Shown here: positions 25,245 through 38,714 of the stretch, piece after piece | Layout: each line of letters opens with the position of its first letter | How positions within the stretch are numbered: position 1 is the first letter of the stretch | Assembly (NCBI GenBank): GCA_002898015.1 | Contig: BDTM01000128.1 | Coordinates: forward strand, 2,781 to 66,780 | From: a bacterium BMS3Bbin03 | GTDB lineage: Bacteria > Zhuqueibacterota > JdFR-76 > BMS3Abin05 | Length of the DNA stretch: 64,000 nt | Direction of reading: 5' to 3' | Made by a program: the position numbers and the translations under genes | Notes under the pieces: generated by a model | What the model saw: only the letters and a program-made list of their open reading frames with translations | Databases searched by the model: none | Told to the model about the DNA's origin: nothing

Positions 25245-26240
25245 TCACAAATTTTCTTCGAAATAGCGCATGCCGGTCTTCTTAAATTCTCTTCCGCTTT
25301 TTAAAACGATAAATTCTGAAATTCCGGTGGCGGAAGAGACTTCATCAATTAGGTGCTGCAAAACACCGGGGTTGGGTGCGTGAATCATGGTGTAATGGCT
25401 GTACGGCCAATTGGGGGCTGTCGCCCGCCGGTAGCAGTGACTGATTTGCGGGAATTCAGCCATGCGCCTGCCGGCCGCCGCGGATTTCTCCTCCGGTACC
25501 CGCCACACAACCATGGCATTCGATCTTGCCCCCATTTTTCGATGATTCAAAATGGCTCCGAATTTACGGATGACACCCGACTGTTTCCAGAATTTGATTT
25601 TCGTCAGAACTTCAGCCTCCGTGAGACCAATGCGTGTGCCGATCGTTTCAAACGGATTGGATTCCAAGGGAATCTCTTTCTGGATCAGGCGCACGAGCGC
25701 TTTATCGGTTTCAGAAAAAGAAGTTAGGTTCCCCTCCTTAAAAACAAAATTCTGTGAAGAAGATTTTGCATTGTTTTGGCCTGTTTCCGGATCCAGCAGC
25801 ACGTTGAGCTTGTAGTATTCCACAACGGGTAATTTTAATGTCGATTTCACGCCCGATCGATTTTTTACCTTCTCCAGAAATTCATCAATTTTTTTCTCCG
25901 AAGAGACCGCAATCGTAAACCATAAATTAAAGGTATGAAAACGCTCGTAGTTGTGGGTCACTCCGGGATGCCGGCTCACGTAATCCGCAACGGCCTCCAG
26001 ATGCGCCGGTGCCACTTCGGCGCCCACAAGTGCGCTGACATATCCGAGCGCTTTTGAATCGAAATTGGCACTGATCCGCCGGATCTTTCCCCTCGCCAGC
26101 AGATCCGAAATCGTTTCAATGACTTCCTGCTCCCCGCTTCCGCATGTTTTTGCCAACTGCAAATAGGGACGGGCCGCCAGCGGAAAATCAGTCTGTAAAT
26201 CACCAAGCAGTTTTTTCTCTAATTTAGAATCTGTTGTCAT
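25245..26240 (-). CDS. ahbAB: Siroheme decarboxylase, fused AhbA/AhbB (NirDL/NirGH-like)
   Basis: Two tandem Lrp/AsnC-like units: GVTHNYER..FNLWFT and ISHCYRR..WPYSHYTMIH..EFKKTGMRY. Confidence 0.88.
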   Translation of the reverse strand: MTTDSKLEKKLLGDLQTDFPLAARPYLQLAKTCGSGEQEVIETISDLLARGKIRRISANFDSKALGYVSALVGAEVAPAHLEAVADYVSRHPGVTHNYERFHTFNLWFTIAVSSEKKIDEFLEKVKNRSGVKSTLKLPVVEYYKLNVLLDPETGQNNAKSSSQNFVFKEGNLTSFSETDKALVRLIQKEIPLESNPFETIGTRIGLTEAEVLTKIKFWKQSGVIRKFGAILNHRKMGARSNAMVVWRVPEEKSAAAGRRMAEFPQISHCYRRATAPNWPYSHYTMIHAPNPGVLQHLIDEVSSATGISEFIVLKSGREFKKTGMRYFEENL

Positions 26241-27352
26241 GAAAGGGTCTCCGTTTCCGGTTCATATGCACAATACGGATCTTCATTTAAAAAATCACCT
26301 GTCACCGCAAAGGCACGGGAACGCGACCCGCCGCAAATGGAGCGAAAGGCACACCGTCCGCATTTGCCTTTTAACAAATCCGGATTGCGCAGCGCCTGAA
26401 AAATGGGAGAATTGCGATACACATCCACAAGAGAATTTTCTCGAACATTCCCCCCGCTTGCCGGCAAAAATCCGGACGGAAAAATACTTCCCGTGTGTGA
26501 AACGAACACAAACCCTTTTCCATCGTTGATGCCGGGCAAAAACCGGCCTTTCCCCGAATTTGTTTCCTGAATCAATTGGCTCACAGAAATATCCATTTCC
26601 TGCGCCATCTGTTGAATCACCACGCGCCGGTAATGCGGCGCCTCCGTGGTTTTAATTCGAAAGGAGTATTGTTTGGAAAAATCGTATAATTTATTCAGAA
26701 CAAGCTCATATTCATTTGCCGTAATCTCGTCTTCCGGTTTTCCCCTGCCAGTCGGAACCAGAAAAAACAGACTCCAGCGGGACACGTTCAGACCGGCCAC
26801 CATTTCCGCCATTTCATCCATCTTCTGCCAATTGAACCGGGTCACCGTGGTGTTGACCTGCAAATCCATTCCCAATTCTTTCACCCACCCGGCACCGTTC
26901 ATGCACCACCGGAAAGAGCCTTCGACATTTCGCAGCGCATCATGGGTCTCCTTATCCGGCCCGTCGATGCTAATCGAAACACTTCGCAGCCCGGCATTCT
27001 TTGCGCGGTCTAAGTTTTCATACGACAAAAGAGGGGTCCCGCTGGGACTCAGCCCCACGCGAAGCCCAATTTCACTGGCGTAAGCAATGAGTTCAAACAG
27101 ATCCTCCCGTTTCATCGGATCACCACCCGTAAACACAAACAGAGGGCGGCCAAAACGCCGAATTTCATCCAGAAGGCCGAACCCTTCCCCGGTGGTCAGC
27201 TCCAACGGATGATGCAGGGGCTGAGCCGACGCCCGGCAGTGCCGGCACGCCAAATCACACGCCTGAGTCACTTCCCAGATCACCAAAAACGGGGATTTTT
27301 CAAAATTGACACCCCGCAGCAAATCGCTCTTTTTCGGCATTGTTTCAATCAT
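26237..27352 (-). CDS. Radical SAM/SPASM protein (TIGR04053-like), probable AhbD-type heme b synthase
   Basis: [16 protein letters not shown] (CxxxCxxC), [30 protein letters not shown]; located in the Ahb operon. Confidence 0.75.
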
Positions 27353-28323
27353 TTTTGCAGCTCCTCTGCCGCCTGATGAGCAAAATAAGTCAGGATTAAA
27401 TCGGCGCCTGCCCGCTTAATGCCGGTCAGGATTTCCCACATGACCGTATTCTCATCGATCCATCCCATTTTGCCGGCGGCTTTGACCATGGCATATTCAC
27501 CGCTGACATTGTAGGCGGCCACCGGCCGGCCGGTCAGATTTCGCACCTCCCGAATCACATCCAGGTAGGCGAGTGCCGGTTTGACCATCACAATATCCGC
27601 TCCTTCTGCCAGATCGAGCGCCACCTCTGCCAGTGCTTCCCGCCGATTGGCCGGATCCATCTGGTAGGTTTTCCGGTTGCCAAACCCGGGCGCCGAGCCG
27701 GCAGCATCCCGAAAGGGGCCGTAAAAGCCGGATGAATATTTTGCGGAATACGCCATAATGGGAATCCCGTATGCACCGGTTGCGTCAAGCGCTTCCCGAA
27801 TGGCCTTCACGGCGCCGTCCATCATTCCGGAAGGCGCCAGCATGTCAGCGCCTGAATTGACCTGAGAGACCGCCGTCTTTCGAATCAAATCGAGTGTGGC
27901 ATCATTGTCCACATCGCTGTTTCGGACCACGCCGCAGTGCCCGTGATCGGTATATTCACAGAAACACAAATCATTAATCAGCACCAAATCCGGAACAGCC
28001 TCCTTAATGGCCTGATTTGCGGTTTGAATAATTCCGGAATCATCGTAAGCGCCGGTCCCGAGCGCATCTTTCGACTCCGGGATCCCAAACAGAATGACGG
28101 CCGGAACGCCCAAACGGTCGAGTACCCGGCATTCTTTTACCGCTTCATCAACGGACATCTGAAAAACGCCCGGCATAGAAGGGACTTCTTTTCGAATGCC
28201 TTCTCCGGGACACACAAACAACGGCGCGATAAAATCTTCCGCGGATACCTGTGTTTCCCGCATCATGCGCCGCAGATTTTCTGTCTTTCGCAGCCGTCTC
28301 GATCGATTTATTGGAAAAGCCAT
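27349..28323 (-). CDS. hemB: Porphobilinogen synthase
   Basis: [45 protein letters not shown]. Confidence 0.97.
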
Positions 28324-28357
28324 TTTACATTCCTTTTTGCTGTTTCTATTTCGGCCA

Positions 28358-29572
28358 TCATCCCGCAGACAATTTTTGCAGGGGTTCGACTTTCAGGCCG
28401 ATTTCTTCGTCACTTAAATAACAGGCCGGGTCCGGCGCCCACATGTCACCGGTAATGGCTTCGGCACGCACGCGCAGATTTCCGCCGCAGATATCCAGCC
28501 ATTTGCATTTCGCGCAGCGGCCTTTTACATGCTGTTTTTTGGTTTTCAGTTTCATCAGAAATTCATTGGAGGTATCCGTCCAGATCCGGCTAAAGGGCTG
28601 CTCCAGCACATTGCCCAGAACTTTATCCCGCCAGAACTGATCCGGATAGACGCTCCCGTCCCAGCTAACACTGGCGACGCCCACGCCGGAACTGTTCCCG
28701 CTGTTCATTTTCAGCAATTCGAGTGCATTTTGGGCCCGTGCCGGATCCTCCTTCTGTAACCGCAGATACAAATAAGGCCCGTCCGTATGGTTGTCGACGG
28801 TGAGAATTTCCGCCGGTAACGCGTTGTCGTGCATCTTCTTCGTGCGGTCCATAATATAGTCCACCGCTTTTCGCGTTTCGTCGTGTGTTAAGTCGTCCTT
28901 CACTAATTTTGTGCCGCGTCCGGTATAAACCAGGTGATAAAAACAGGCCCGTGTGATACGGCGTTCTTCAATCAAATCAAAAATCTGGGGCAGGTCCTGC
29001 ACATTAATCCCATTCATTGTGAACCGCAAGCCCACCTTTACACCCACTTCCTGACAATTTCGGATGCCTCTCATGGCCAGATCAAAAGCGCCTTTCATGC
29101 CGCGGAACCGGTCGTTCGTTTCACGCATGCCGTCCAAACTGATTCCCACGTAAGACACACCCATTTCTTTCAGGCGATGCGCCACTGTTTTCGTAATTAA
29201 TGTGCCGTTTGTTGAAAAGACCGTGCGAATTCCTTTGCGGATTGAATACTCCGTCAGTTCAAAGATGTCTTCCCGGCGGAACGGCTCCCCGCCTGAAAAA
29301 AGAAGTACGGGTACCCTAAATTCCGCCAGATCATCTATAAATGATTTTCCCTGCTCGGTTGTCATTTCCCCCCGGTAGTCGACATCCTGAGATTTTGAGT
29401 AGCAGTGAATACAGTGGAGATTACAGCGCCGGGTGACGTTCCAGACGACAATCGGTTTTTTATCCAGCGAGAACTGCAATAAATTCGCCGGCATCTTACC
29501 TGATTTCCGTCCGTAACGAAGCGGATCGGACGGCTCCACCGTCCCGCAGTATAATTTTGAAATACCTATCAT
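28358..29572 (-). CDS. ahbC: 12,18-didecarboxysiroheme deacetylase / Fe-coproporphyrin synthase (radical SAM)
   Basis: [55 protein letters not shown]. Confidence 0.93.
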
Positions 29573-31149
29573 GTGATTTTCCCTTTCTGAAATTTGCGCG
29601 TTTTTGCCCCCATCTCATAAGAAACAAGTGCCTTGACCAAGTCCGGAATTAGAAACTGTTTCGGCATGACGGTGGTGTGAAACCCAAAGCGCTCGGCTGT
29701 TTTTTGCGTAATGGGCCCGATGCAGGCCGTTTTGACGGCAGAAGCCACCTGAGGAATCTTTTCTGCACCGATTAATTGGACAAACTTTTCCACCGTTGAA
29801 GAACTTGTAAAGGTGATCCAATCGGGGAAAGCGGCCGGCTTTTCGAACAAATGAGCGGCCATTTCTCTTGAACGGCTGTTTAAAATGGTCCGGTAAACCG
29901 GCGCAACGGTGACAATTGCGCCCATTTGTTTCAACGTCTCCGGCAGCACGTCCCGCGCCGCTTCCGCACGCGCCAGAACCACCGTTTTGTTTTTGAGTGA
30001 AACCGTTTGAAAGGCTTCGATCAGCCCTTCCGCAATAAAAGACGCCGGCTGTAAATCGGGGATTAATCCGTAGTTTTTCAGAGCTTCCGAGGTGGCGGCG
30101 CCAATGCTGGCAATTTGGATTTTACCGAGCGCCCGAACATCTACTCCCGAATCGAACAAACGCTGCATCCATCTTTTGACGCCGTTGGCGCTGGTAAAAA
30201 CCAGCCAATCGATCCTTTCCGGATGGGCTAAAACTTCATCCGCAGATTTCCAGGATTCCGGGTCGACAATTTCGATGGCAGGCAGAACAATTGCCGCCGC
30301 ACCCTGCTCTCTCAGCAAATCTGCCAGAGAGCCGGCCTGCCCCTGAGCCCGTGTGACAAGAATTCGTTTTCCAAAAAGCGGCTTTTTTTCAAACCAGGAA
30401 AGCTTCTCACGCAAATTGACCACTTCTCCCACGACAATCAGTGCGGGCGGTGCCAGCCGGACGGCTTTTGCCCGGTCTGAAATGGTTTCCAGTGTCCCCA
30501 CGAGTACGTTTTGGTCCGGCAATGTACCGTTCCGAATGACAGCCGCCGGTGTCTGCGGAGATTTCCCGTGGGTTATCAATTGTGCCGTAATTTTAGGCAA
30601 TTGTCCCACGCCCATGTAAAAAACAAGCGTGCTTTTTTCCGCAGCCAGTGCCTTCCAATTAATATCTGAATTTTCCTTGGCAGGATCTTCATGCCCTGTG
30701 ACAAACGTAAGCGATGCGTCCATGCCGCGCAGTGTCGCCGGAATACCGGCATAATTTAAAGCGGCTGCCCCTGCCGTAATGCCGGGCACGACTTCAAACG
30801 GAATGCCGGCCTCCCACAGAGCAAGCGCTTCTTCGCCGCCGCGTCCGAAAATGTACGGATCTCCCCCTTTCAGCCGCACCACAACCGCACGGGTTTGAGC
30901 TTTTTCGATGAGGAGCTGATTAATCTTTTCCTGCCGAAGTGTGTGCTGCCCGGCTTTTTTTCCCACGTAAATTCTTTCCGTATGTTCGGGAACCCAATTC
31001 AGCAGTTCGGAATTGACCAGATTGTCGTAAATAACCACATCCGCTTTTTTTAAGAGAGCCTGCCCTTTTAAGGTGAGAAGACCCGGATCGCCGGGGCCGC
31101 TGCCGATCAGGTAAACCGTGCCCGTTTCTGATTTTCCAGGAGATTTCAT
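29569..31149 (-). CDS. cobA-hemD: Fused uroporphyrinogen-III C-methyltransferase / uroporphyrinogen-III synthase
   Basis: GSGPGDPGLLT, RLKGGDPYIFGRGGEE, then ILVTRA, FTSANGV, FTSSSTV, CIGPIT. Confidence 0.93.
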   Translation of the reverse strand: MKSPGKSETGTVYLIGSGPGDPGLLTLKGQALLKKADVVIYDNLVNSELLNWVPEHTERIYVGKKAGQHTLRQEKINQLLIEKAQTRAVVVRLKGGDPYIFGRGGEEALALWEAGIPFEVVPGITAGAAALNYAGIPATLRGMDASLTFVTGHEDPAKENSDINWKALAAEKSTLVFYMGVGQLPKITAQLITHGKSPQTPAAVIRNGTLPDQNVLVGTLETISDRAKAVRLAPPALIVVGEVVNLREKLSWFEKKPLFGKRILVTRAQGQAGSLADLLREQGAAAIVLPAIEIVDPESWKSADEVLAHPERIDWLVFTSANGVKRWMQRLFDSGVDVRALGKIQIASIGAATSEALKNYGLIPDLQPASFIAEGLIEAFQTVSLKNKTVVLARAEAARDVLPETLKQMGAIVTVAPVYRTILNSRSREMAAHLFEKPAAFPDWITFTSSSTVEKFVQLIGAEKIPQVASAVKTACIGPITQKTAERFGFHTTVMPKQFLIPDLVKALVSYEMGAKTRKFQKGKIT

Positions 31150-32450
31150 TCTGCCCTCAGCGCCTCCAGCAAACTCACCGTAATTTTATCGAAGGCCATA
31201 TCGAGATCTTCCGGCTGCATGGCATGCGATAAAAACACCGTCTCAAAAGGCGACGGCGGAAAATAGATTCCTTTTTCCAACAACGAGTGGAAGAATTTTG
31301 CGTACAACCCGGCATCTGCCCCGGATGCCTGCTTGAAATTTTCAACCGCGGTGTTTGTAAAAAATAGCGTCACCATGGAGCCCACCTGGTTAATGGTCAC
31401 CGGAAGCGACTTTTGGTGTATCCATTTTTTCAATCGGGCGACAAAGATAGTCGACGTTTCATTTAATTTTAAAGGAATCCGGTATTTTTGCAGATAGTCA
31501 AGTGTTGCAAGCCCGGCAGACATGGCCAACGGATTTCCCGACAGGGTGCCGGCCTGATAAATCGTTCCGGCAGGCGCCAGCGCATCCATCACATCACATC
31601 TCCCACCCACGGCGCCCACCGGCAGACCGCCTCCAATGATCTTTCCCAAACAGGTCAGATCGGGTTGGACGCCAAACAATTCCTGGGCGCCGCCATTTGA
31701 AAGACGGAATCCTGTAATGACTTCATCAAAAATAAGAAAAATGCCGGCCTGCCGCGTCAATTCCCGGAGCCCTTTTAGAAACCCTTCTTTGGGGGGGACC
31801 GTGCCCATGTTTCCGGCAACCGGCTCCACAATCACGGCTGCAATCTGGCCTTTAAAAGCCTCCACGAGCGATTCAACGGCAGTCAGATCGTTGTAAGGCG
31901 CCAGCAGCGTGTCCGAAACCAGGCTTTTGGGTACGCCCGGGGAACCCGGAATTCCCAGAGTGGCTGTGCCCGAACCCGCTTTCATAAGAAACGAATCTGA
32001 ATGCCCGTGATAACAGCCTTCAAACTTAATAATTTTGTCTTTATTGGAAATCCCGCGTGCCAGCCGGACGGCCGTCATCGCGGCTTCGGTCCCCGAATTC
32101 ACCATTCGTACTTTTTCAATGGAAGGCACCAGTTCGACCACTTTGGCGGCGAGCGCCACTTCCGCCTCTGTCGGTGCACCAAAACTCGTCCCCCTCTCCA
32201 GCGCTTTTTGAATGGCTTTTACGACCACCGGATGTCTGTGCCCCAGAATCAAAGGCCCCCAGGAACTCACGAAATCCAGGTAGCGATTTCCATCGGCATC
32301 GATGATAAACGGGCCGTCCCCTTTTTGAATAAACACGGGCGTGCCGCCCACAGAACCGAATGCCCGAACCGGACTGTTCACGCCGCCGGGGATAAATTTC
32401 TGCGCTTTTTCAAACCAGGCTTTGGAACGGTCGTTTTGCATCACCTTCAA
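31146..32450 (-). CDS. hemL: Glutamate-1-semialdehyde 2,1-aminomutase
   Basis: PGGVNSPVRAF, SWGPLILGH, FEGCYHGH, GKIIGGGLPVGA, QAGTLSGNP. Confidence 0.97.
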   Translation of the reverse strand: MKVMQNDRSKAWFEKAQKFIPGGVNSPVRAFGSVGGTPVFIQKGDGPFIIDADGNRYLDFVSSWGPLILGHRHPVVVKAIQKALERGTSFGAPTEAEVALAAKVVELVPSIEKVRMVNSGTEAAMTAVRLARGISNKDKIIKFEGCYHGHSDSFLMKAGSGTATLGIPGSPGVPKSLVSDTLLAPYNDLTAVESLVEAFKGQIAAVIVEPVAGNMGTVPPKEGFLKGLRELTRQAGIFLIFDEVITGFRLSNGGAQELFGVQPDLTCLGKIIGGGLPVGAVGGRCDVMDALAPAGTIYQAGTLSGNPLAMSAGLATLDYLQKYRIPLKLNETSTIFVARLKKWIHQKSLPVTINQVGSMVTLFFTNTAVENFKQASGADAGLYAKFFHSLLEKGIYFPPSPFETVFLSHAMQPEDLDMAFDKITVSLLEALRAE

Positions 32451-33376
32451 TTCCTTTTGTATCCTTTTAAAATTTCTCTTGCACTCTGTTGAAGCATTTT
32501 TTGAGCCAGAATTTCACCGGCTTTTTCCGGCTCTTCGACGTGTGCCACAACTTTTTCGCGGAGAATTTTCCTGCCGTCAAGGGAAGCCACCATCCCCGTC
32601 AGAATAATTTGATTGCCGACCACCTGCCCCAGAGCCCCGACCGGCACATGACACCCGCCTTCAATTTGACGCAAAAATTCCCGTTCGGCTCGAAGTGCAC
32701 CTTCCGTTTCCGGGTGAGCAATCGAACGGACCAACTGCCGCACTTCCCGGTCATGGCGGCGCCCTTCTATGGCGATGGCGCCCTGCCCGACTGCGGGCAG
32801 ACAAATCTCCGGCGGCAGAAATTCCGTCACATAGGACCGATATCCCATTCGTTTGATGCCCGCCCAGGCGACGACAATTCCATCCCAATCGGATTCCTGA
32901 TATTTTCGCAGCCGTGTGTCAATGTTCCCGCGCAGATTTTTAAATTGAAACTCCGGGCCGTATGCCAGAAGCTGTGCCTTCCGGCGGAGACTCCCTGTGG
33001 CAAGGCACGCTTTAGGCGGCAATTCTTTTAAGGTCCATCCATTTTGGGCCAGCAGCACATCACGCGGATCTTCCCTTTCGGTAAATGCCATTAAATCAAA
33101 ATCTTCATGAATTTCAGAGGGTAAATCTTTGGCACTGTGTACGGCAAAATCAATCTCCCCTTTCCGCAGAGAACGTTCAATTTCTTTGATAAAAACGCCC
33201 GTATCCCCCAATTGGTCTAACGGGCGAGTCTGCTCCCGATCTCCGGTGGTCGTGATTTTGACAAGTTCAATCGAGAGCCCCGGATTTCGATTAACCAGAC
33301 GTTCTTTCACCCAATAGGCCTGCCAGAGTGCCAATTTACTGCCGCGTGTTCCGAGTTTGTATGTGCGTTTTAACAT
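32447..33376 (-). CDS. hemC: Hydroxymethylbilane synthase
   Basis: GTRGSKLALWQ, VHSAKDLP, SLRRKAQ, RGNIDTRL, EGGCHVP. Confidence 0.97.
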   Translation of the reverse strand: MLKRTYKLGTRGSKLALWQAYWVKERLVNRNPGLSIELVKITTTGDREQTRPLDQLGDTGVFIKEIERSLRKGEIDFAVHSAKDLPSEIHEDFDLMAFTEREDPRDVLLAQNGWTLKELPPKACLATGSLRRKAQLLAYGPEFQFKNLRGNIDTRLRKYQESDWDGIVVAWAGIKRMGYRSYVTEFLPPEICLPAVGQGAIAIEGRRHDREVRQLVRSIAHPETEGALRAEREFLRQIEGGCHVPVGALGQVVGNQIILTGMVASLDGRKILREKVVAHVEEPEKAGEILAQKMLQQSAREILKGYKRN

Positions 33377-33400
33377 TAATTGTCCGATACCGTTATATTT

Positions 33401-34654
33401 TTATTCCAGATCAAAAAACTGTTTGATGACACTGATTTTATGAATGCCGTCGGGATTGTTGTAAAGTTCTTTCAATTTTACAGTCGGCAGATGGAGGATT
33501 TTATTAACGATTCGGCGCGTCATTTCTTCCGCAACAGGCCACTGTTCTTCTGGGAATTTATGTTCGTACTGTTTAAACTCTTTTTCCAGAATTTCCTCAA
33601 ACCGTCTGCGCAGCTTTTGAATCGTTGGATTGATCTGCAAATTTTTGATCCAATTCAGAAAATCAACCGTTTCAATTTTAATGATCTCGACGGCCTTTTC
33701 CGCTTCTCTTTCCCGCGAGGCCCGGTTTTGGGCAACAATTTGTTTTAGATCATCGATGTCGTACAGATAAATGCCGTCGAATTCACGAATCTCCGGATCC
33801 AAATCATAGGGAACGGCAATATCTATCAAAAACAAATTTCGCTTTTGGCGGATTTTAAGAATTTTTTGAATATCCTCTTTTACGAATAAGGGCTCCGGAG
33901 AACTTGTGGCCGTGATCACAATATCCGCCTGTATTAAATGCTCCATCACCTGCTCAAAGGGAACGGCTTTTCCTTCAACCCTTTCGGCAAGGTCCTGTGC
34001 TTTTTGCAAGGTCCGGTTGGCGACGATTATATTTTTCACGCCGGCTTGCTGCAGATGCCGGGCGGTTAACGCCGCCGTTTCACCGGCTCCGATGACGAGC
34101 GCACGACAATTTTGAATCGGATAAAAAATCTTTTCCGCCAATTGAACGGCCGCATGCCCCACAGAAACAACCCCGGATCCGACTTCTGTTTCCACGCGGA
34201 CCTTTTTATTCACCTCAAAGGCTTTGTGAAAAAGTCGATTTAAAATGGTTTTTGTTCCGCCAAACTGTGCGGCCAATCGATACGCTTCCCGCACCTGACC
34301 GGAGATTTGTGTTTCGCCGATAACCAGTGAATTTAGTCCGCCGATGACAGAAAACAAATGACGCACCATTTTATCGTTGGCGTGATGGTAAAAGTAGGCA
34401 GAGGCCTCTTGGCCGGGTAAATCAAAATAATCCAGATAAAATGTCTTTAAGGTCCGGATTCCTTCCTGCTCATCCAACACCACGGCGTAAATCTCACTCC
34501 GGTTACACGTGGAAAGGATCGTCACTTCCTGAATGCCGGGTAGAGAGAGTAATTCAGCGTAGATTCGGGGGTAATCTTCCCGGAGAAAGGTCACTTTATT
34601 TAAAAATTTTATGGATGCAGTTTGATGGCTAATCCCGTAGACAATTAAATCCAT
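33401..34654 (-). CDS. hemA: Glutamyl-tRNA reductase
   Basis: Catalytic STCNRSE, GETQISGQV, NADPH-binding IGAGE, IDIAVP, dimerisation KILHLP. Confidence 0.96.
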   Translation of the reverse strand: MDLIVYGISHQTASIKFLNKVTFLREDYPRIYAELLSLPGIQEVTILSTCNRSEIYAVVLDEQEGIRTLKTFYLDYFDLPGQEASAYFYHHANDKMVRHLFSVIGGLNSLVIGETQISGQVREAYRLAAQFGGTKTILNRLFHKAFEVNKKVRVETEVGSGVVSVGHAAVQLAEKIFYPIQNCRALVIGAGETAALTARHLQQAGVKNIIVANRTLQKAQDLAERVEGKAVPFEQVMEHLIQADIVITATSSPEPLFVKEDIQKILKIRQKRNLFLIDIAVPYDLDPEIREFDGIYLYDIDDLKQIVAQNRASREREAEKAVEIIKIETVDFLNWIKNLQINPTIQKLRRRFEEILEKEFKQYEHKFPEEQWPVAEEMTRRIVNKILHLPTVKLKELYNNPDGIHKISVIKQFFDLE

Positions 34655-35262
34655 TCGCGCAATTTATCCTTCACCTGCTTAATCGTTCCGTTTTGCAGGC
34701 TTGCCATCACCTGCGGCATAACAATCGTATCCATTATCCGCCGCCTTTCGACGGGATTGTCAACTTCTTCTTTCAGATGGCTTCGAATATTCCCGACAAT
34801 TTTAAGCGCTTCTTCATAAGATTCATCAAAAAGAGATTCCATAATTTTGCGAATTTCCCGCGCCATTGCGGGTGACTGACCGCTGGTGGAAATGGCAATT
34901 TGTAAATCCCCTCTGCGCACAATTGCCGGTACGTAAAAATCACAATTTTCCGGCTCGTCCACAACATTGATGAGCGTCTTTTCTCTTTTCGCCTCTTCAT
35001 AAATTTCCCGATTAACCTGCGGGTCATTTGTGGCGCTGATCGCCAGAAAATAGCCCCTTAAATCGCCCGAATGGTATTTTCGGTAATGGCAGATAATTTC
35101 GGCATTGATCCACATCCGGAAAAGTTCCGGTGTCAGGTCGGGACTAATCACCGTCACCGAAGCGCCGTACCGGTGCAGCGTTTTCACCTTTCGCTCTGCC
35201 ACTCTGCCGCCGCCGAACACCACACATTTTCGGTTCTTCAATTGTAAATAAATGGGATACAT
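34645..35262 (-). CDS. Precorrin-2 dehydrogenase / sirohydrochlorin ferrochelatase (SirC/Met8p/CysG-N)
   Basis: MYPIYL, GGGRVAERK, NVVDEP..CDFYVPA, ISTSGQSPAMA. Confidence 0.92.
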   Translation of the reverse strand: MYPIYLQLKNRKCVVFGGGRVAERKVKTLHRYGASVTVISPDLTPELFRMWINAEIICHYRKYHSGDLRGYFLAISATNDPQVNREIYEEAKREKTLINVVDEPENCDFYVPAIVRRGDLQIAISTSGQSPAMAREIRKIMESLFDESYEEALKIVGNIRSHLKEEVDNPVERRRIMDTIVMPQVMASLQNGTIKQVKDKLREWI

Positions 35263-35300: not shown

Positions 35301-35317
35301 TTCAATTTTTATGCCAA
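35301..35317 (-). promoter_or_regulatory. sigma54 (-24/-12) promoter of the heme operon
   Basis: Minus strand reads TTGGCAT-AAAAA-TTGAA, about 40 nt upstream of the first ATG; exact -24/-12 spacing, with GA instead of GC at -12. Confidence 0.75.
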
Positions 35318-35444
35318 ACCTTCAAAATATGAGTCCGTTTTTTAATCATTATTCCATCGTAACTTGTTAATTATCAAGTAAACTAAAAAACGCCTGCTTT
35401 GCGGCGTTTTCTTTTTTACGGCCCGCGATGATTTTTGGGCCATT

Positions 35445-35483
35445 GGCTTTTCATTTTGAAAAACGGCTTTTCATTATGAAAAA
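35445..35483. promoter_or_regulatory. Tandem palindromic enhancer (UAS) sites, TTTTCA-N3-TGAAAA x2
   Basis: GGCTTTTCATTTTGAAAAA (35445-35463) and GGCTTTTCATTATGAAAAA (35465-35483), 20-bp period, about 130-165 bp upstream of the -24 element. Confidence 0.7.
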
Positions 35484-35495
35484 TTTTTATGACCG

Positions 35496-35520
35496 ACCTG
35501 ATGGTGAACCATCAGGCTAA
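35496..35520. repeat. 25-bp palindromic repeat, copy 2
   Basis: Identical to 24679-24703, same orientation. Confidence 0.8.
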
Positions 35521-35684
35521 GAATGGAAAGCGCCATAAATGGCGCTCACACAGCAGGACGCTTCAGCGTTCTTTTTTCTACTAAAAAGGTGCCGCCATTT
35601 GTTAAATCCAACCCCTCTGGCTGGTCGTAAAACCAAGATTGAAAAGAATACAATAATCGTAAGAGTACATCTTTGTGAAGAACC

Positions 35685-37619
35685 TCATTTGTTCTCTTTC
35701 CCCTGGATTCCGTATTCTTTTAATTTCCGCCAGAGTGTGGCCCGGCTAATCCCCAGCACTTCGGTGACTTTCCCCAGATTCCAGTCATAATATTCCAGTG
35801 TTTTTAAAATATGCTGCTTTTCCACTTCATAAAGTGTCGCCCATTCGGACGTATTTTGCGCCGACGGTTCTTCGTAAAATTGAATTTCCCGGGGCAGATC
35901 TGTGGGTGTAATGTGCTGCCCGATTGTCATGATAACCGCGCGTTCAATCGCATTTTCCAGCTCACGCACATTCCCCGGCCAGGGATAATTTTGCAGCAGC
36001 GCCATCGCTTCCTGGGTGATTCCCACAATGCGTTTTCCCGCCCCCTGACTCAGCTTCTCCAGGAAATAATCGGCCAATTCCGGGACATCTCCCTTCCGGA
36101 GACGAAGCGGCGGCACGACGATGTGGAACACTTTCAACCGGTAATACAAATCTTCCCGAAATTTGTGCTGTTCAACCAATTCTTTTAAATTTTTATTCGT
36201 GGCGGCAATGACCCGAACATCGACCTGGATGGTTTGTGTGCTTCCCACCCGGCGCACTTCACCCTCCTGAATGACACGCAAAATTTTGGCCTGCGTTGCG
36301 GGCGACATCTCTCCGATTTCATCCAGAAAAACAGTGCCCTGGTCGGCTTCTTCAAACAACCCTTTTTTCTGGGAAACAGCCCCGGTGAAGGCACCTTTCA
36401 AATAGCCGAACAACTCACTCTCCAGCAGCGTCTCCGATATCGCCGCACAATTGACCACAATGAAAGATTTCTCTGCGCGGGGACTATTTTTATGAATGGC
36501 TTTTGCCACCAATTCTTTTCCTGTCCCGCTCTCCCCTTCAATCAGAACCGTCGTGTTGGCAGTCGAAACCCGGGCGATCATTTCCAGCACCTGCTGTAAT
36601 TTCCGGCTCTTTCCAATGATTCCCGAAAACTCAAATCGCTCCCGCGAATACTGCCATGAAATAAATTCCTCCACCTCTTTCTCGAGCCGTTTCAGTAAAC
36701 CCGGCACTTCTTTTTGGCGGTCGTTGAAATTTTTCTGAATAATGGCTTGCAAGTCATCCCGATTATAGCAAAAAAGCAGCTCATCCACAATCTTTTCCGG
36801 GGCCTGATCCGTCAAATCAATGATTAACAGGGGCGTTCCTCTGCGGGGTTTCAACTGTTCGGAAACATGCGCTTTCCAGGCCGCTGCCGGCGGTTTTTGT
36901 TCCAGCCGGACAAGGATGTCAAACGTCTCGTTCGGCAGATTCCGGTTGGTTTCGGGAATCAAGGCATCCGGCTTTAACATCCTCTTCTGAATTGTCTTGA
37001 ATTTCAATTGTCGAAAATACCGGTACAGAAGCGGCCCCTCCGCGGAATCTCCGACAAGAGCCAAACGAATGTGCCGGATATTTCCGAAAATATGCCTTCC
37101 CAATTCGACAATGGCACTCTCAATCGTCACCGCTTCCGTAAAAAGGGAGGAATCGTCTACAATGCTTTTATAAAATTTTACACCGCTTTGAAACAGGCGA
37201 TTTAAAACCGGGCCTGTCAGTTCACTTTCCAGGCTTTGGGTGTATCCTTCCTTAACATTTTCCAGAAACTTGACATCTCCGATGATCGGCGTGCCGATTC
37301 CAAGCAGAACTTCAAAGAAATGGCGGATGCTTTCGCCCCGCTCCCATTCAAAAAAAACGCCTTTCGGCAATTCGGAAAGTACCGGAAATACAGACAGATA
37401 CACATCCTTTACCGAGCGAATCGTCTGATCGATGTCATCCGACACAAATACGCCTTCAAAATGATAGGGCGTATGAAAGGCCATTGCTTCTTCAAAATAA
37501 GTTTTCCGTTTAATTGCCGATAAAAATTCTCTGAAATTCCCGGAGACCAATTCTTTAAGAATGATTCTATTTTCTATCCAGGGAAGTTTTAGTCCAATTG
37601 AAATGATTTCGGAAGCCAT
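35685..37619 (-). CDS. sigma54-dependent activator (AAA+ / Fis-HTH) with an N-terminal degenerate glutamyl-tRNA reductase-like domain
   Basis: C-terminal half has GESGTGKE, GAFTGA, FLDEIGE, FREDLYYRL, WPGNVREL and HTH LGISRATLWRKL. The first ~325 aa align by eye with the neighbouring HemA. Confidence 0.9.
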   Translation of the reverse strand: MASEIISIGLKLPWIENRIILKELVSGNFREFLSAIKRKTYFEEAMAFHTPYHFEGVFVSDDIDQTIRSVKDVYLSVFPVLSELPKGVFFEWERGESIRHFFEVLLGIGTPIIGDVKFLENVKEGYTQSLESELTGPVLNRLFQSGVKFYKSIVDDSSLFTEAVTIESAIVELGRHIFGNIRHIRLALVGDSAEGPLLYRYFRQLKFKTIQKRMLKPDALIPETNRNLPNETFDILVRLEQKPPAAAWKAHVSEQLKPRRGTPLLIIDLTDQAPEKIVDELLFCYNRDDLQAIIQKNFNDRQKEVPGLLKRLEKEVEEFISWQYSRERFEFSGIIGKSRKLQQVLEMIARVSTANTTVLIEGESGTGKELVAKAIHKNSPRAEKSFIVVNCAAISETLLESELFGYLKGAFTGAVSQKKGLFEEADQGTVFLDEIGEMSPATQAKILRVIQEGEVRRVGSTQTIQVDVRVIAATNKNLKELVEQHKFREDLYYRLKVFHIVVPPLRLRKGDVPELADYFLEKLSQGAGKRIVGITQEAMALLQNYPWPGNVRELENAIERAVIMTIGQHITPTDLPREIQFYEEPSAQNTSEWATLYEVEKQHILKTLEYYDWNLGKVTEVLGISRATLWRKLKEYGIQGKENK

Positions 37620-37636
37620 TAAAACTCACCACCCAT

Positions 37637-38458
37637 TTAATACGCGTGCACACTTGAGATAAATGTGCTGAAAATCATAAAAGAAATAACGATCCATCCA
37701 AAGCCGACAATAGAAATGTAGGCACTTTTCCGGGGATGCCAATTCAAAAACCACCGAACGCTGAGGTACATGGCATAAATCAGCCAGGTGACAAACACAC
37801 TTAAAATTTTAGAGTCCAGATACCAGACATGGGTCAAATATTTTGAAGCCAGTGAAAGTGCAATGAAAATGCCCACTGTGAGAAAGATAAACCCAATGTA
37901 AATCGACTCCAGGCTCAGGCGGTCCAGAAGTTCAAGCGCGGGCAATCTCGAGTAAAAATATTTTAAATTTTTCTCCCGCAATTCTTTTAACAATGATAAA
38001 TACATAAAACTTGCGATAAACCCAATCGTCAATCCCGAATAGGAAAAGAGCATGATCAGCACATGCACCTGAACCCAGTCGTCCTGAAAATACGGCGGCA
38101 TGGGGCCGTGATGCAGGGGAAACACATTCGCGATCAATACAAATGTCGTCATGAGGCCCACAATAAAAATACCGAACGCCTGTTCCCGCAGGCGGATTTC
38201 AAGCACAAAATAGAGAACTCCAAAGAGCCACATCCATGTGAATGAAGCTTCACCCACACTTAGCACGGGAAAATGACCTTCCAGCCGCCATTGGAATACA
38301 ATTACAAGCGTCTGCAGAAGGATGCCGGCAAGCAGAAGAAAAGATGCCGGTCTGGCGAGACTTTTAGTCTGTTTCTGAAAATAGCGAATGTAAAACAAAA
38401 AACTCAGAAAATACAGCAAAAATACCGTCCATCGAAGAATCAGAATCAAGGTTTCCAT
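37637..38458 (-). CDS. HemX/CcsA-like membrane protein (cytochrome c assembly family)
   Basis: About 8 TM helices, HFP, VHV (His), RLPALELLD, WYLDSK, C-terminal His; no ResB/CcsB partner nearby. Confidence 0.85.
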   Translation of the reverse strand: METLILILRWTVFLLYFLSFLFYIRYFQKQTKSLARPASFLLLAGILLQTLVIVFQWRLEGHFPVLSVGEASFTWMWLFGVLYFVLEIRLREQAFGIFIVGLMTTFVLIANVFPLHHGPMPPYFQDDWVQVHVLIMLFSYSGLTIGFIASFMYLSLLKELREKNLKYFYSRLPALELLDRLSLESIYIGFIFLTVGIFIALSLASKYLTHVWYLDSKILSVFVTWLIYAMYLSVRWFLNWHPRKSAYISIVGFGWIVISFMIFSTFISSVHAY

Positions 38459-38602
38459 GGCTCCTCGCCGTTTAATTAAATTAAAGCTCCCGAAAGTCCG
38501 GACAGGCGTTCGGGGAGATTTTCTTCATCGAGCGTCCCCATTTAAAATACGAAGTCCCGGTTGAGCAAATTAAGCGCACAATCATCTGTGGTAATCTATT
38601 TT

Positions 38603-38631
38603 AAAATAATGAATTATCTTTCCCCATGCAA
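38603..38631 (-). promoter_or_regulatory. sigma70 promoter for the hemX-like/activator pair
   Basis: TTGCAT-17nt-TATTTT on the minus strand. Confidence 0.5.
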
Positions 38632-38714
38632 TAAAAAAGGTGAAGATTAAAGAATCTTCACCTTTTCCGGCACCGTTCGCCCGTCATCGGAAGCGATTTA
38701 AAGCGGGTGCCGGT

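Follow-up and report, generated by a model that had tools for sequence, protein, structure and literature searches.

A sigma-54 activator with a predicted dead glutamyl-tRNA reductase as its sensor domain, encoded beside a HemX-like membrane protein and a heme biosynthesis operon

The 64,000-nucleotide stretch of DNA analysed here (the window), part of contig BDTM01000128.1 from bacterium BMS3Bbin03, encodes on its minus strand a 644-aa sigma-54 activator, or bacterial enhancer-binding protein (bEBP), at 35685..37619. According to sequence comparison and structural modelling, its N-terminal sensor domain is a true homologue of glutamyl-tRNA reductase (GluTR, HemA) that is catalytically dead. 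The activator gene lies between a gene for a HemX/CcsA-like integral membrane protein and a heme biosynthesis operon, and the activator and the HemX-like protein probably form a heme-demand regulator in which the relationship between HemX and GluTR has been re-used for transcription control. An initial annotation, made from the letters of the window and a list of its open reading frames (ORFs), had placed this ORF at the right coordinates and had proposed that a duplicated hemA became a pseudoenzyme sensor of heme, Glu-tRNA, or partners such as HemX or HemL.

The sensor (aa 1–330; 36630..37619, minus strand) was delimited with Pfam, BLASTP, AlphaFold2 combined with Foldseek, and secondary structure. 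Pfam GlutR_N matched aa 29–153 (E 3.5e-10, 40.3 bits; cut-off 27), and BLASTP aligned aa 62–330 with residues 61–353 of the neighbouring HemA (33401..34654, minus strand) at 25% identity over 293 columns (E 1e-23); this alignment contains every motif pair from which the initial annotation had read a HemA resemblance over some 325 residues. A profile built from the N-terminal domains of 11 proteins of the same fused architecture was searched against 1.84 billion proteins, where it retrieved ordinary GluTRs of about 420 aa with E about 1e-50, and against the PDB, where it matched the GluTRs 1gpj (E 2e-30) and 4n7r (E 3.5e-20). Furthermore, an AlphaFold2 model of aa 1–335 (predicted local distance difference test, pLDDT, 84.8; predicted template modelling score, pTM, 0.74) gave only GluTR chains as its top seven Foldseek matches in the PDB, the best being 1gpj (E 5.2e-15, TM 0.70). 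Because Pfam, BLASTP, the profile search and the predicted fold agree, the resemblance between sensor and GluTR is far beyond chance. The sensor comprises a catalytic-domain-like part (approximately aa 1–156), a degenerate NADPH-domain-like part (approximately aa 166–286), in which the fold is kept but shortened and pLDDT is low at 218–229, and a "spinal" helix (aa 287–323). The Shikimate_DH match that the initial annotation had proposed as a further check was not found: PF01488 gave no Pfam match on the activator at E up to 1, and it still scored about 33 bits in two of eight distant fusion ORFs.

The Cys of the (S)TCNR motif is the nucleophile of GluTR. At the STCNR position the activator carries HTPYH (aa 49–53; 37461..37475, minus strand), without Cys, and at the NADPH-binding GAGE position it carries GDSAE (aa 190–194; 37038..37052, minus strand). 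These two replacements, first read by eye, were confirmed in an alignment of nine fusions with eight GluTRs, in which the catalytic column reads [HR]TP[YF]H in 9/9 fusions versus (S)TCNR in 8/8 GluTRs, and the NADPH column reads G[DEN]S in 9/9 versus GAG in 8/8. The TCNR-type motif is also missing from all 11 diverse fusion sensor domains, and the GxGxxG/A motif is kept, by eye, in none of them. Additionally, GlutR_dimer (PF00745) had no Pfam match on the activator, in which the AAA+ module starts at aa 334, right behind the spinal helix. Since three of the four features that define a GluTR are absent (Cys, NADPH motif and dimerisation domain) and only the GlutR_N fold is present, the activator is not a GluTR enzyme. 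Among the fusion domains, the pockets that once formed the active site and bound NADPH have degenerated and vary, and glutamate-pocket residues are conserved solely inside the window's own family. The motifs LNRLF, KIFG and Y..DDL are common to the sensor and true GluTRs, and the invariant or near-invariant positions of the 11 diverse domains include G136, L142, I177, F178, G179, D289, L290, F319 and W322.

Behind the sensor, the protein appears from its sequence to be a standard bEBP as a machine, with an AAA+ module, a GAFTGA loop and a Fis-type helix-turn-helix (HTH) domain whose putative cognate site is a conserved upstream sequence. Pfam placed Sigma54_activat (PF00158) at aa 334–500 (36120..36620, minus strand; E 6.4e-75, 250.9 bits), AAA_lid_14 at aa 506–589, and HTH_8 at aa 596–636 (35712..35834, minus strand; E 1.2e-12). 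Walker A (GESGTGKE) and the DE of Walker B are present, and GAFTGA lies within the AAA+ core at aa 409–414 (nt 36378–36395, minus strand). The Pfam matches and invariant columns bear out the earlier description of an intact AAA+ domain and HTH following the sensor: across 22 fusion proteins, G409 and A414 of the loop are invariant and A410–G413 are at least 90% conserved. In the full-length AlphaFold2 model (pLDDT 84.0), the 37-residue spinal helix runs into the AAA+ module. An rpoN gene was found in the window's own genome (Sigma54_DBD, 209.7 bits), and the best NCBIfam matches of the activator are generic activators, all below their cut-offs.

To establish how widely the architecture recurs, six-frame searches were run on 41 related genomes, and fusion-length ORFs were present in 17. 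The survey was extended to the phylum's 145 genomes with a completeness of at least 80%, counting by hand as hits those ORFs that have 530 aa or more and extend to profile position 339–340. By this measure at least 55 genomes carry the fusion (two of them flagged unpublished), nine match at HemA length only, and 81 have no match. Inspection of the nine revealed the regulator in three, namely G074, where it is divergent, and G087 and G071, where contig ends cut it; the others are G076, G084 and G085, which have hemX-hemA pairs without the DNA site described below, G077, which has the site but in which the fusion was not found, and G069 and G129. A word-indexed search recovered eight further clusters of 643–652 aa with N-terminal identity of 49–55% and identical Pfam architecture, and 12 of its 21 matches were true GluTRs. 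At greater distance, all eight ORFs scanned, with sensor identity of 17–21%, showed GlutR_N at 19–34 bits (above the Pfam cut-off in four, 19–23 bits in four) together with Sigma54_activat, AAA_lid_14 and HTH_8. At least 18 fusions stood among the best 150 sensor-profile matches in a 50%-identity cluster library.

The junction between the two parts is also bridged by metagenome contigs from runs X1 and X5 (study P1), X4 (study P2) and X8 (study P3). The X8 contig, from a vent strain, represents a diverged variant with 111 substitutions and zero indels inside the activator ORF. The locus occurs in metagenome runs of marine and hydrothermal-vent origin. An assembly artefact, which the initial annotation had named as a danger, is ruled out by the recurrence of the fusion in both genome sets and by the bridging contigs of three studies.

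A maximum-likelihood tree separated 26 fusion domains from 30 GluTRs by a single branch (Shimodaira-Hasegawa-like approximate likelihood ratio test, SH-aLRT, 99), with the window HemA among the GluTRs; the tree comes from a quick search under LG+G4, has long branches, and draws its GluTR sample from the best profile matches only. Recent copying of the neighbouring hemA is ruled out by this split, which therefore points to one old origin instead of a recent local duplication. Consequently, the proposal of a duplicated hemA turned pseudoenzyme holds as to a dead GluTR paralogue, and the duplication is to be placed far back in time. The idea that HemA is always accompanied by the fusion was also considered. 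It held in the first sample, in which the fusion occurred in 13/13 genomes with a clear HemA, and failed across the phylum, where HemA-length-only genomes exist. Genome G040 of the first sample gave only a weak GluTR-like match of 439 aa, and the fusion was not found there. Two observations on true GluTRs were made in passing. Protein P0166 (837 aa) is a true GluTR with an intact STCNR and a C-terminal fusion that resembles, by eye, AhbA/AhbB-type siroheme decarboxylase repeats, and G008 has two full-length HemA genes, on contigs C25 and C58, which are 36% and 32% identical to the window HemA.

The gene for the HemX/CcsA-like protein (273 aa; 37637..38458, minus strand) lies 17 nt upstream of the activator gene. 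Its product matched PF01578 (Cytochrom_C_asm) with 100 bits against a cut-off of 29.9, and its best NCBIfam model was CcsB (TIGR03144) with 114.7 bits against a cut-off of 187.6. It is thus no genuine CcsA/CcsB-type cytochrome c synthase: its score stays below that equivalog cut-off, and of the WWD motif it retains only a W..D.K remnant, where the genome's other CcsA carries WGNFWSWDPKE. The window's own genome has four PF01578 genes in all, with CcmC, CcmF and a better-scoring CcsA encoded elsewhere. Among 15 orthologues of the HemX-like protein, H132 and H271 are invariant and flank the W..D.K remnant. Relatives of the protein in the PDB are CcsBA chains only.

For the partner survey, the neighbouring ORFs of relatives were compared by BLAST with the window proteins. 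In 18/18 readable loci (the window's own genome, 15 others, G074 and G087), the HemX-like gene immediately precedes the fusion in the same orientation, often overlapping the activator gene; the contig of G071 begins inside the regulator. Hem genes adjoin the regulator only in the window's own family (five genomes) and in G008, G025, G071 and G074, whereas none occurred in the stretch fetched around it (approximately 8–10 kb per side where the contig allowed, two contigs being short) in G005, G007, G009, G011, G019, G021, G027, G029 and G031. The co-localisation with hem operons that the initial annotation had proposed to test is thus seen in the former genomes and was not seen within the fetched stretches of these nine. 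Judged by gene neighbourhood, the invariant partner of the regulator is the HemX-like gene, not the hem operon. A HemX-like gene also stands directly upstream of, and overlapping, a true hemA in loci L058 (G076), L060 (G084) and L061 (G085), where the fusion was not found, and directly downstream of a true hemA in an Armatimonadaceae metagenome-assembled genome (L024).

To assess whether the two proteins could touch, complexes of the HemX-like protein and the sensor, both entered as alignments, were modelled. The pair scored 0.63 (0.61–0.64 across runs), the best of three controls scoring 0.00; this mark is reached by 58 of 80 solved complexes and by 2 of 110 mismatched pairs, a calibration that holds only approximately, the alignments being the author's own. 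Between runs, at least 84% of contacts are reproduced, and the pLDDT of the partner is 75 or higher. Recall of a solved complex is unlikely because no PDB entry holds both families. The modelled interface joins residues 156–177 (E159, F168, R171, L172, P173, L175) and 239–243 of the HemX-like protein to residues 175–179 (I177, F178, G179), 260–263 and 280–300 (Y285, D289, L290) of the sensor, and on both sides it draws on the best-conserved residues of the family. Applied by eye, the positive-inside rule places both HemX-like segments in cytoplasmic loops and turns H132 and H271 outward. The model supports a contact between the HemX-like protein and the dead-GluTR domain. As KIFG and Y..DDL are common to true GluTRs, this contact, if real, may be ancestral to HemX-GluTR pairs.

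The interface also bears on an alternative in which the dead-GluTR domain itself binds heme or another tetrapyrrole allosterically, at the site of heme feedback reported for some GluTRs, with the HemX-like protein an accessory, for instance in heme delivery, or unrelated to signalling. Heme binding to GluTR, or its inhibition by heme, occurs in several organisms; the sensor fold is well preserved in the AlphaFold2 and Foldseek results, and the regulon logic would fit any heme sensor. On the other side, no His or Cys is invariant among the 11 diverse sensor domains, the former active-site and NADPH pockets have degenerated, the best-conserved sensor patches lie against the HemX-like loops in the complex model, and the pairing with the HemX-like gene is without exception in the 18 readable loci. 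We consider direct binding unlikely, although by no means negligible.

The candidate target of the regulator in the window is an operon that leads from Glu-tRNA to heme b via siroheme (25245..35262, minus strand; Pfam and NCBIfam). Read along the minus strand, the HemX-like gene and the activator gene are followed by a 422-bp spacer and then by sirC (34645–35262), hemA (33401–34654), hemC (32447–33376), hemL (31146–32450), cobA-hemD (29569–31149), ahbC (28358–29572), hemB (27349–28323), an ahbD-like radical SAM gene (26237–27352) and an ahbA-ahbB fusion (25245–26240). The NCBIfam scores exceed their cut-offs for AhbC (682.9 against 650), TIGR04053 (475/395), AhbA (244.5/140), AhbB (242/125) and cysG_Nterm (168/62). 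A single 331-aa protein combines AhbA with AhbB, and the uroporphyrinogen methyltransferase CobA is likewise joined to HemD.

The spacer contains a proposed enhancer, or upstream activating sequence (UAS; 35449..35481), made of the palindromes TTTCA-N3-TGAAA at 35449–35461 and 35469–35481, 20 bp apart, and situated about 150 bp upstream of the -24 element. A sigma-54-type -24/-12 element, TGGCAT-N5-TTGAA (35301..35316, minus strand), is located approximately 40 nt upstream of the sirC ATG. Between UAS and promoter lies a terminator-like hairpin with a 10-pair stem followed by a T run (35385..35412, minus strand), which would keep transcription of the regulator from running on into the hem operon. 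The link to a heme operon that the initial annotation had proposed is thus backed, as far as sequence can carry it, by a complete siroheme-route operon beside the regulator with a tandem palindrome and a -24/-12 element upstream of it.

Exploration of the same arrangement in relatives identified the tandem palindrome and a GG-N10-TTG element directly upstream of sirC/hemA in 14 of the 15 fusion-bearing genomes with hemA that were examined (G000–G004, G005, G008, G011, G019, G025, G027, G029, G071 and G074); in G007, palindromes lie upstream of hemA and the -12 deviates. Six of the hemA loci bearing the site are unlinked to the regulator gene. The palindrome copies are 20–21 bp apart, that is, two helical turns, and lie 100–165 bp upstream of the -24/-12 element, with only one palindrome perfect in G019, G011 and G025. 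The element occupies the same place in 4/4 same-family relatives and occurs as TGG[CAT]A[CT]-N5-TTG[ACTG] in nine more genomes. In G002, a 1.6-kb insert parts the regulator gene from the site, and UAS and promoter remain beside sirC; at this locus (L037:11654–13495) the activator gene is followed, ahead of the UAS, by an additional ORF of approximately 1.2 kb whose start resembles a signal peptide. A natural control was provided by G084, G085 and G076, where the fusion was not found and no tandem site was present upstream of hemX-hemA (G084 and G085 being 98 and 100% complete, in 3 contigs and 1 contig). The site is also rare: the window's own 3.63-Mb genome has 26 single and only 2 tandem sites, and G009 and G031 have exactly one tandem site each, with 0 occurrences of the reversed control pattern. 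Taken across genomes, the Fis-type HTH family goes with a tandem palindrome ahead of a -24/-12 promoter, an association read from the sequences. In four distant genomes (L025, L029, L030 and L031), a single TTCA-N3-TGAA palindrome precedes the HemX-like/activator pair by less than 100 bp, a hint at autoregulation; such a palindrome is not present at 38459–38714, upstream of the pair in the window.

Four genomes that are 97–100% complete (G009, G021, G031 and G039) separate the regulator from the pathway. A true HemA query matched only the fusion gene in them and HemB was not found, with HemB present in the control genome G029; they nevertheless keep the regulator and the HemX-like gene as a pair. 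A TonB-dependent receptor operon follows the site in five genomes without a hemA match (G009, G031, G021, G136 and G146; hemB sought in the first three and not found). G009 and G031 have their single tandem site, followed by a -24/-12 element, ahead of the genes of an orthologous lipoprotein (41% identity, E 3e-46) and of a TonB-dependent receptor, and the G009 receptor promoter reads TGGCAT-N5-TTGCT, the canonical form. In G021 the site precedes a TonB receptor, and in G136 and G146 the genome's only near-match site precedes the same lipoprotein-receptor pair. Weak homologues of this UAS-linked lipoprotein in the window's genome (contigs C65 and C103) have no site nearby. The site thus stands before heme synthesis in some genomes and before a TonB receptor in others, and therefore the regulator is most simply a sensor of heme or tetrapyrrole demand.

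These genomes bear on a second alternative, in which the sensor reads the entry to the pathway (charged tRNA-Glu, HemL, that is, glutamate-1-semialdehyde aminomutase or GSAM, or the true GluTR) and tunes hem transcription. GluTR binds tRNA-Glu and GSAM, and the activator adjoins the hemA and hemL region in the window. The pair persists where hemA and hemB were not found, which argues against Glu-tRNA, HemL or true GluTR as the signal; in such genomes the site precedes a TonB receptor operon, the dimerisation domain for GluTR-GluTR pairing is gone, and the conservation of the glutamate pocket does not extend beyond the window's family. Sensing of the pathway entry is consequently very improbable. 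Among the sensed partners that had been suggested at the outset, a contact with the HemX-like protein gains support from the model and the strict pairing, whereas Glu-tRNA and HemL are argued against by these genomes.

The receptors raise a third alternative, in which the signal is iron or cobalamin: B12 or an iron chelate would be the cargo of the receptors, and co-regulation of the hem operon would reflect its need for iron or the shared uroporphyrinogen branch. The best NCBIfam model of the G021 receptor is TonB-B12 (206.3 bits), all receptor matches are under their cut-offs, and the operon in the window includes cobA. Conversely, the best model of the G009 receptor is TonB-hemin (178.6 bits), both protein parts derive from heme-specific machinery (GluTR and the CcsA/HemX family), and the operon ends in AhbC, AhbD and AhbAB, which lead to heme b. 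An iron or cobalamin signal is thus improbable.

The reading that we prefer, a heme-demand regulator formed by the activator and the HemX-like protein, would work as follows. The activator input would be an ancient dead GluTR paralogue without a dimerisation domain, paired with a HemX-like membrane protein that would report membrane heme status via H132 and H271 and would dock by two cytoplasmic loops on the hinge of the dead GluTR, at the KIFG motif and where the spinal helix begins. Under heme sufficiency, the HemX-like protein would hold the activator off, either by sequestration or by a HemX-dependent turnover of the kind that reduces GluTR in Firmicutes. A shortage of heme would let the AAA+ ring assemble and open the promoter, which would drive the hem operon or, where hemA and hemB were not found, the lipoprotein and TonB-dependent receptor operon. 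The sign of this response and the identity of the ligand are what we infer from the arrangement. More tentatively, the HemX-like protein and the dead GluTR might constitute a two-protein heme sensor whose contact is ancestral, with HemX generally docking on the hinge between NADPH domain and spinal helix of GluTR; the regulator might then have arisen when a hemX-linked hemA copy swapped its dimerisation domain for AAA+ and HTH modules, turning a post-translational feedback into a transcriptional one.

Several observations weigh against a heme-demand regulator of this kind. Two features, the invariant histidines and family membership, carry the heme-sensing role of the HemX-like protein, and the off state under heme sufficiency is drawn from just two considerations, that bEBPs are activators and the logic of the pathway. 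The missing invariant His and Cys of the sensor domains have been mentioned. The interface loop LPxLExLD also occurs in the genome's ordinary CcsA and so is not specific to the pair, and the receptors could also take up B12 or iron chelates. With the patterns tried, no tandem site was found in G039, G138 and G134, and G077 has the site upstream of sirC-hemA and yielded no fusion. The second tandem site of the window's own genome (G000, contig C39; L052:6425–6570) has a spacing of 23 and is followed by TGGTAT-N5-TTGAC. An NtrC-type response-regulator gene flanks it on one side, and a REC-only gene followed by a lytic-transglycosylase-like gene on the other; the site may belong to a further target or to a different activator, and the palindrome may be read by more than one bEBP.

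Further points of this kind concern the promoter. At the -12, the window reads GA where GC is usual, and almost all hem and receptor promoters read GA, GT or GG (TTGAA, TTGAT, TTGAC, TTGTA, TTGGC), canonical TTGCT being seen only in the G009 receptor promoter. Genome-wide, TTGA[AT] occurs 14 times at N5 against 6–11 elsewhere, whereas canonical TTGC is enriched at the right spacing, with 15 at N5 against 4–7 at other spacings. That the organism's sigma-54 prefers TTGA at -12 was considered and is ruled out, TTGC being the form enriched genome-wide. The conserved deviation may matter for promoter tightness. In addition, a sigma-70-like promoter (35348–35377, 10/12 matches) lies between the terminator and the -24 element, upstream of sirC. 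The non-canonical -12 and this sigma-70-like site would suit a fourth alternative, in which the N-terminal domain is a relic without sensing and the activator is constitutive or otherwise controlled, or in which the -24/-12 element does not work and the sigma-70-like promoter is used. Nevertheless, the sensor fold and several motifs are conserved in the deep family at 17–21% identity, the spacing of GG and TTG is exact in 14 genomes in which the surrounding intergenic DNA is unconserved, and many loci show translational coupling or overlap of the HemX-like gene. We therefore give this alternative hardly any weight.

The fusion is related to several known systems. It shares with GluTR (HemA/GtrR; GlutR_N, Shikimate_DH and GlutR_dimer; PDB 1gpj and 4n7r) approximately 330 homologous residues and the two-domain fold with spinal helix, and differs in lacking the catalytic Cys, the NADPH glycine motif and the dimerisation domain, in being joined to AAA+ and HTH modules, and in forming a separate clade. 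With bEBPs that carry N-terminal domains, such as NtrC, NtrC1 and DctD (receiver domain, REC), NifA and NorR (GAF), and XylR and DmpR (V4R), it has in common the AAA+ GAFTGA, the Fis-type HTH, a proposed layout of distant UAS and -24/-12 promoter, and a helix that joins sensor and AAA+; in contrast to them, it takes its input through a pseudoenzyme from the pathway it would regulate, a kind of domain missing from those listed for bEBPs in the literature searched. Some bEBPs have trans-acting partners, as in PspF-PspA-PspBC and DhaR-DhaK/L, and the membrane-linked partner control proposed here is reminiscent of Psp. Irr (which senses heme at ferrochelatase), HssRS/HrtR and HbrL let heme status set genes of heme synthesis or transport, as proposed here; the sensing by Irr is tied to a pathway protein, as would be that of the fusion regulator. 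These regulators belong to unrelated families and act at sigma-70 promoters. To our knowledge none of them uses a GluTR-derived domain or sigma-54, and the literature searched held no match.

According to a 2018 study (PMC5801465), HemX, a PF01578 protein, keeps GluTR abundance low in heme-replete Staphylococcus aureus and Bacillus subtilis. The effect of HemX on GluTR levels has been known since 1994, with Schroder et al. 1994 cited for B. subtilis, and the study describes the mechanism, a direct contact and heme binding as undefined (PMC5801465). The HemX-GtrR pairs of both species, as portrayed there, resemble the pair described here in that a PF01578 membrane protein is genetically linked to a GluTR or GluTR-like protein and, as proposed, in that heme sufficiency lowers pathway input (PMC5801465). 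They differ in that their target is enzyme abundance, whereas in the present pair a transcription factor takes the place of GluTR, the expected outcome is the opening of a promoter, and the contact is a predicted one. The initial annotation had known of no described regulator with this architecture. No description of a GluTR-like bEBP was found in the literature searched either (subscription journals and supplements being outside the search), and a term search within PMC12316311 gave no hits. Relative to that literature, a bEBP with a pathway pseudoenzyme as sensor and a membrane co-sensor would be new as an input device.

How bacteria gauge heme and set the flux through GluTR is only partly understood, and the fusion family offers a new handle on it, a natural genetic experiment in which a non-enzymatic GluTR look-alike is kept strictly beside a HemX-like gene. 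It would add a pseudoenzyme of the regulated pathway to the bEBP input domains, would link sigma-54 to tetrapyrrole homeostasis, and marks a candidate heme/tetrapyrrole uptake operon in uncultured marine bacteria. The interface (loops 156–177 and 239–243 against the KIFG/Y..DL hinge), the DNA site and the promoter are directly testable. If the contact is indeed ancestral, the family would represent a new class of bEBP input, combining mimicry of a pathway enzyme with a membrane co-sensor, and a pointer to the long-sought mechanism of HemX.

One further observation concerns the DNA between the activator stop and the UAS. Just past the stop, 35497–35611 is a short repeated element, over which summed contig depth in run X1 rises from approximately 27 to 134–237. 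The part at 35566–35611 is common to many unrelated contigs, the assemblies of X1, X4 and X5 break in this repeat, and in the vent strain of X8 53 other letters replace 35490–35684. The repeat looks like a small dispersed repeat or a hairpin element resembling a miniature inverted-repeat transposable element (MITE).

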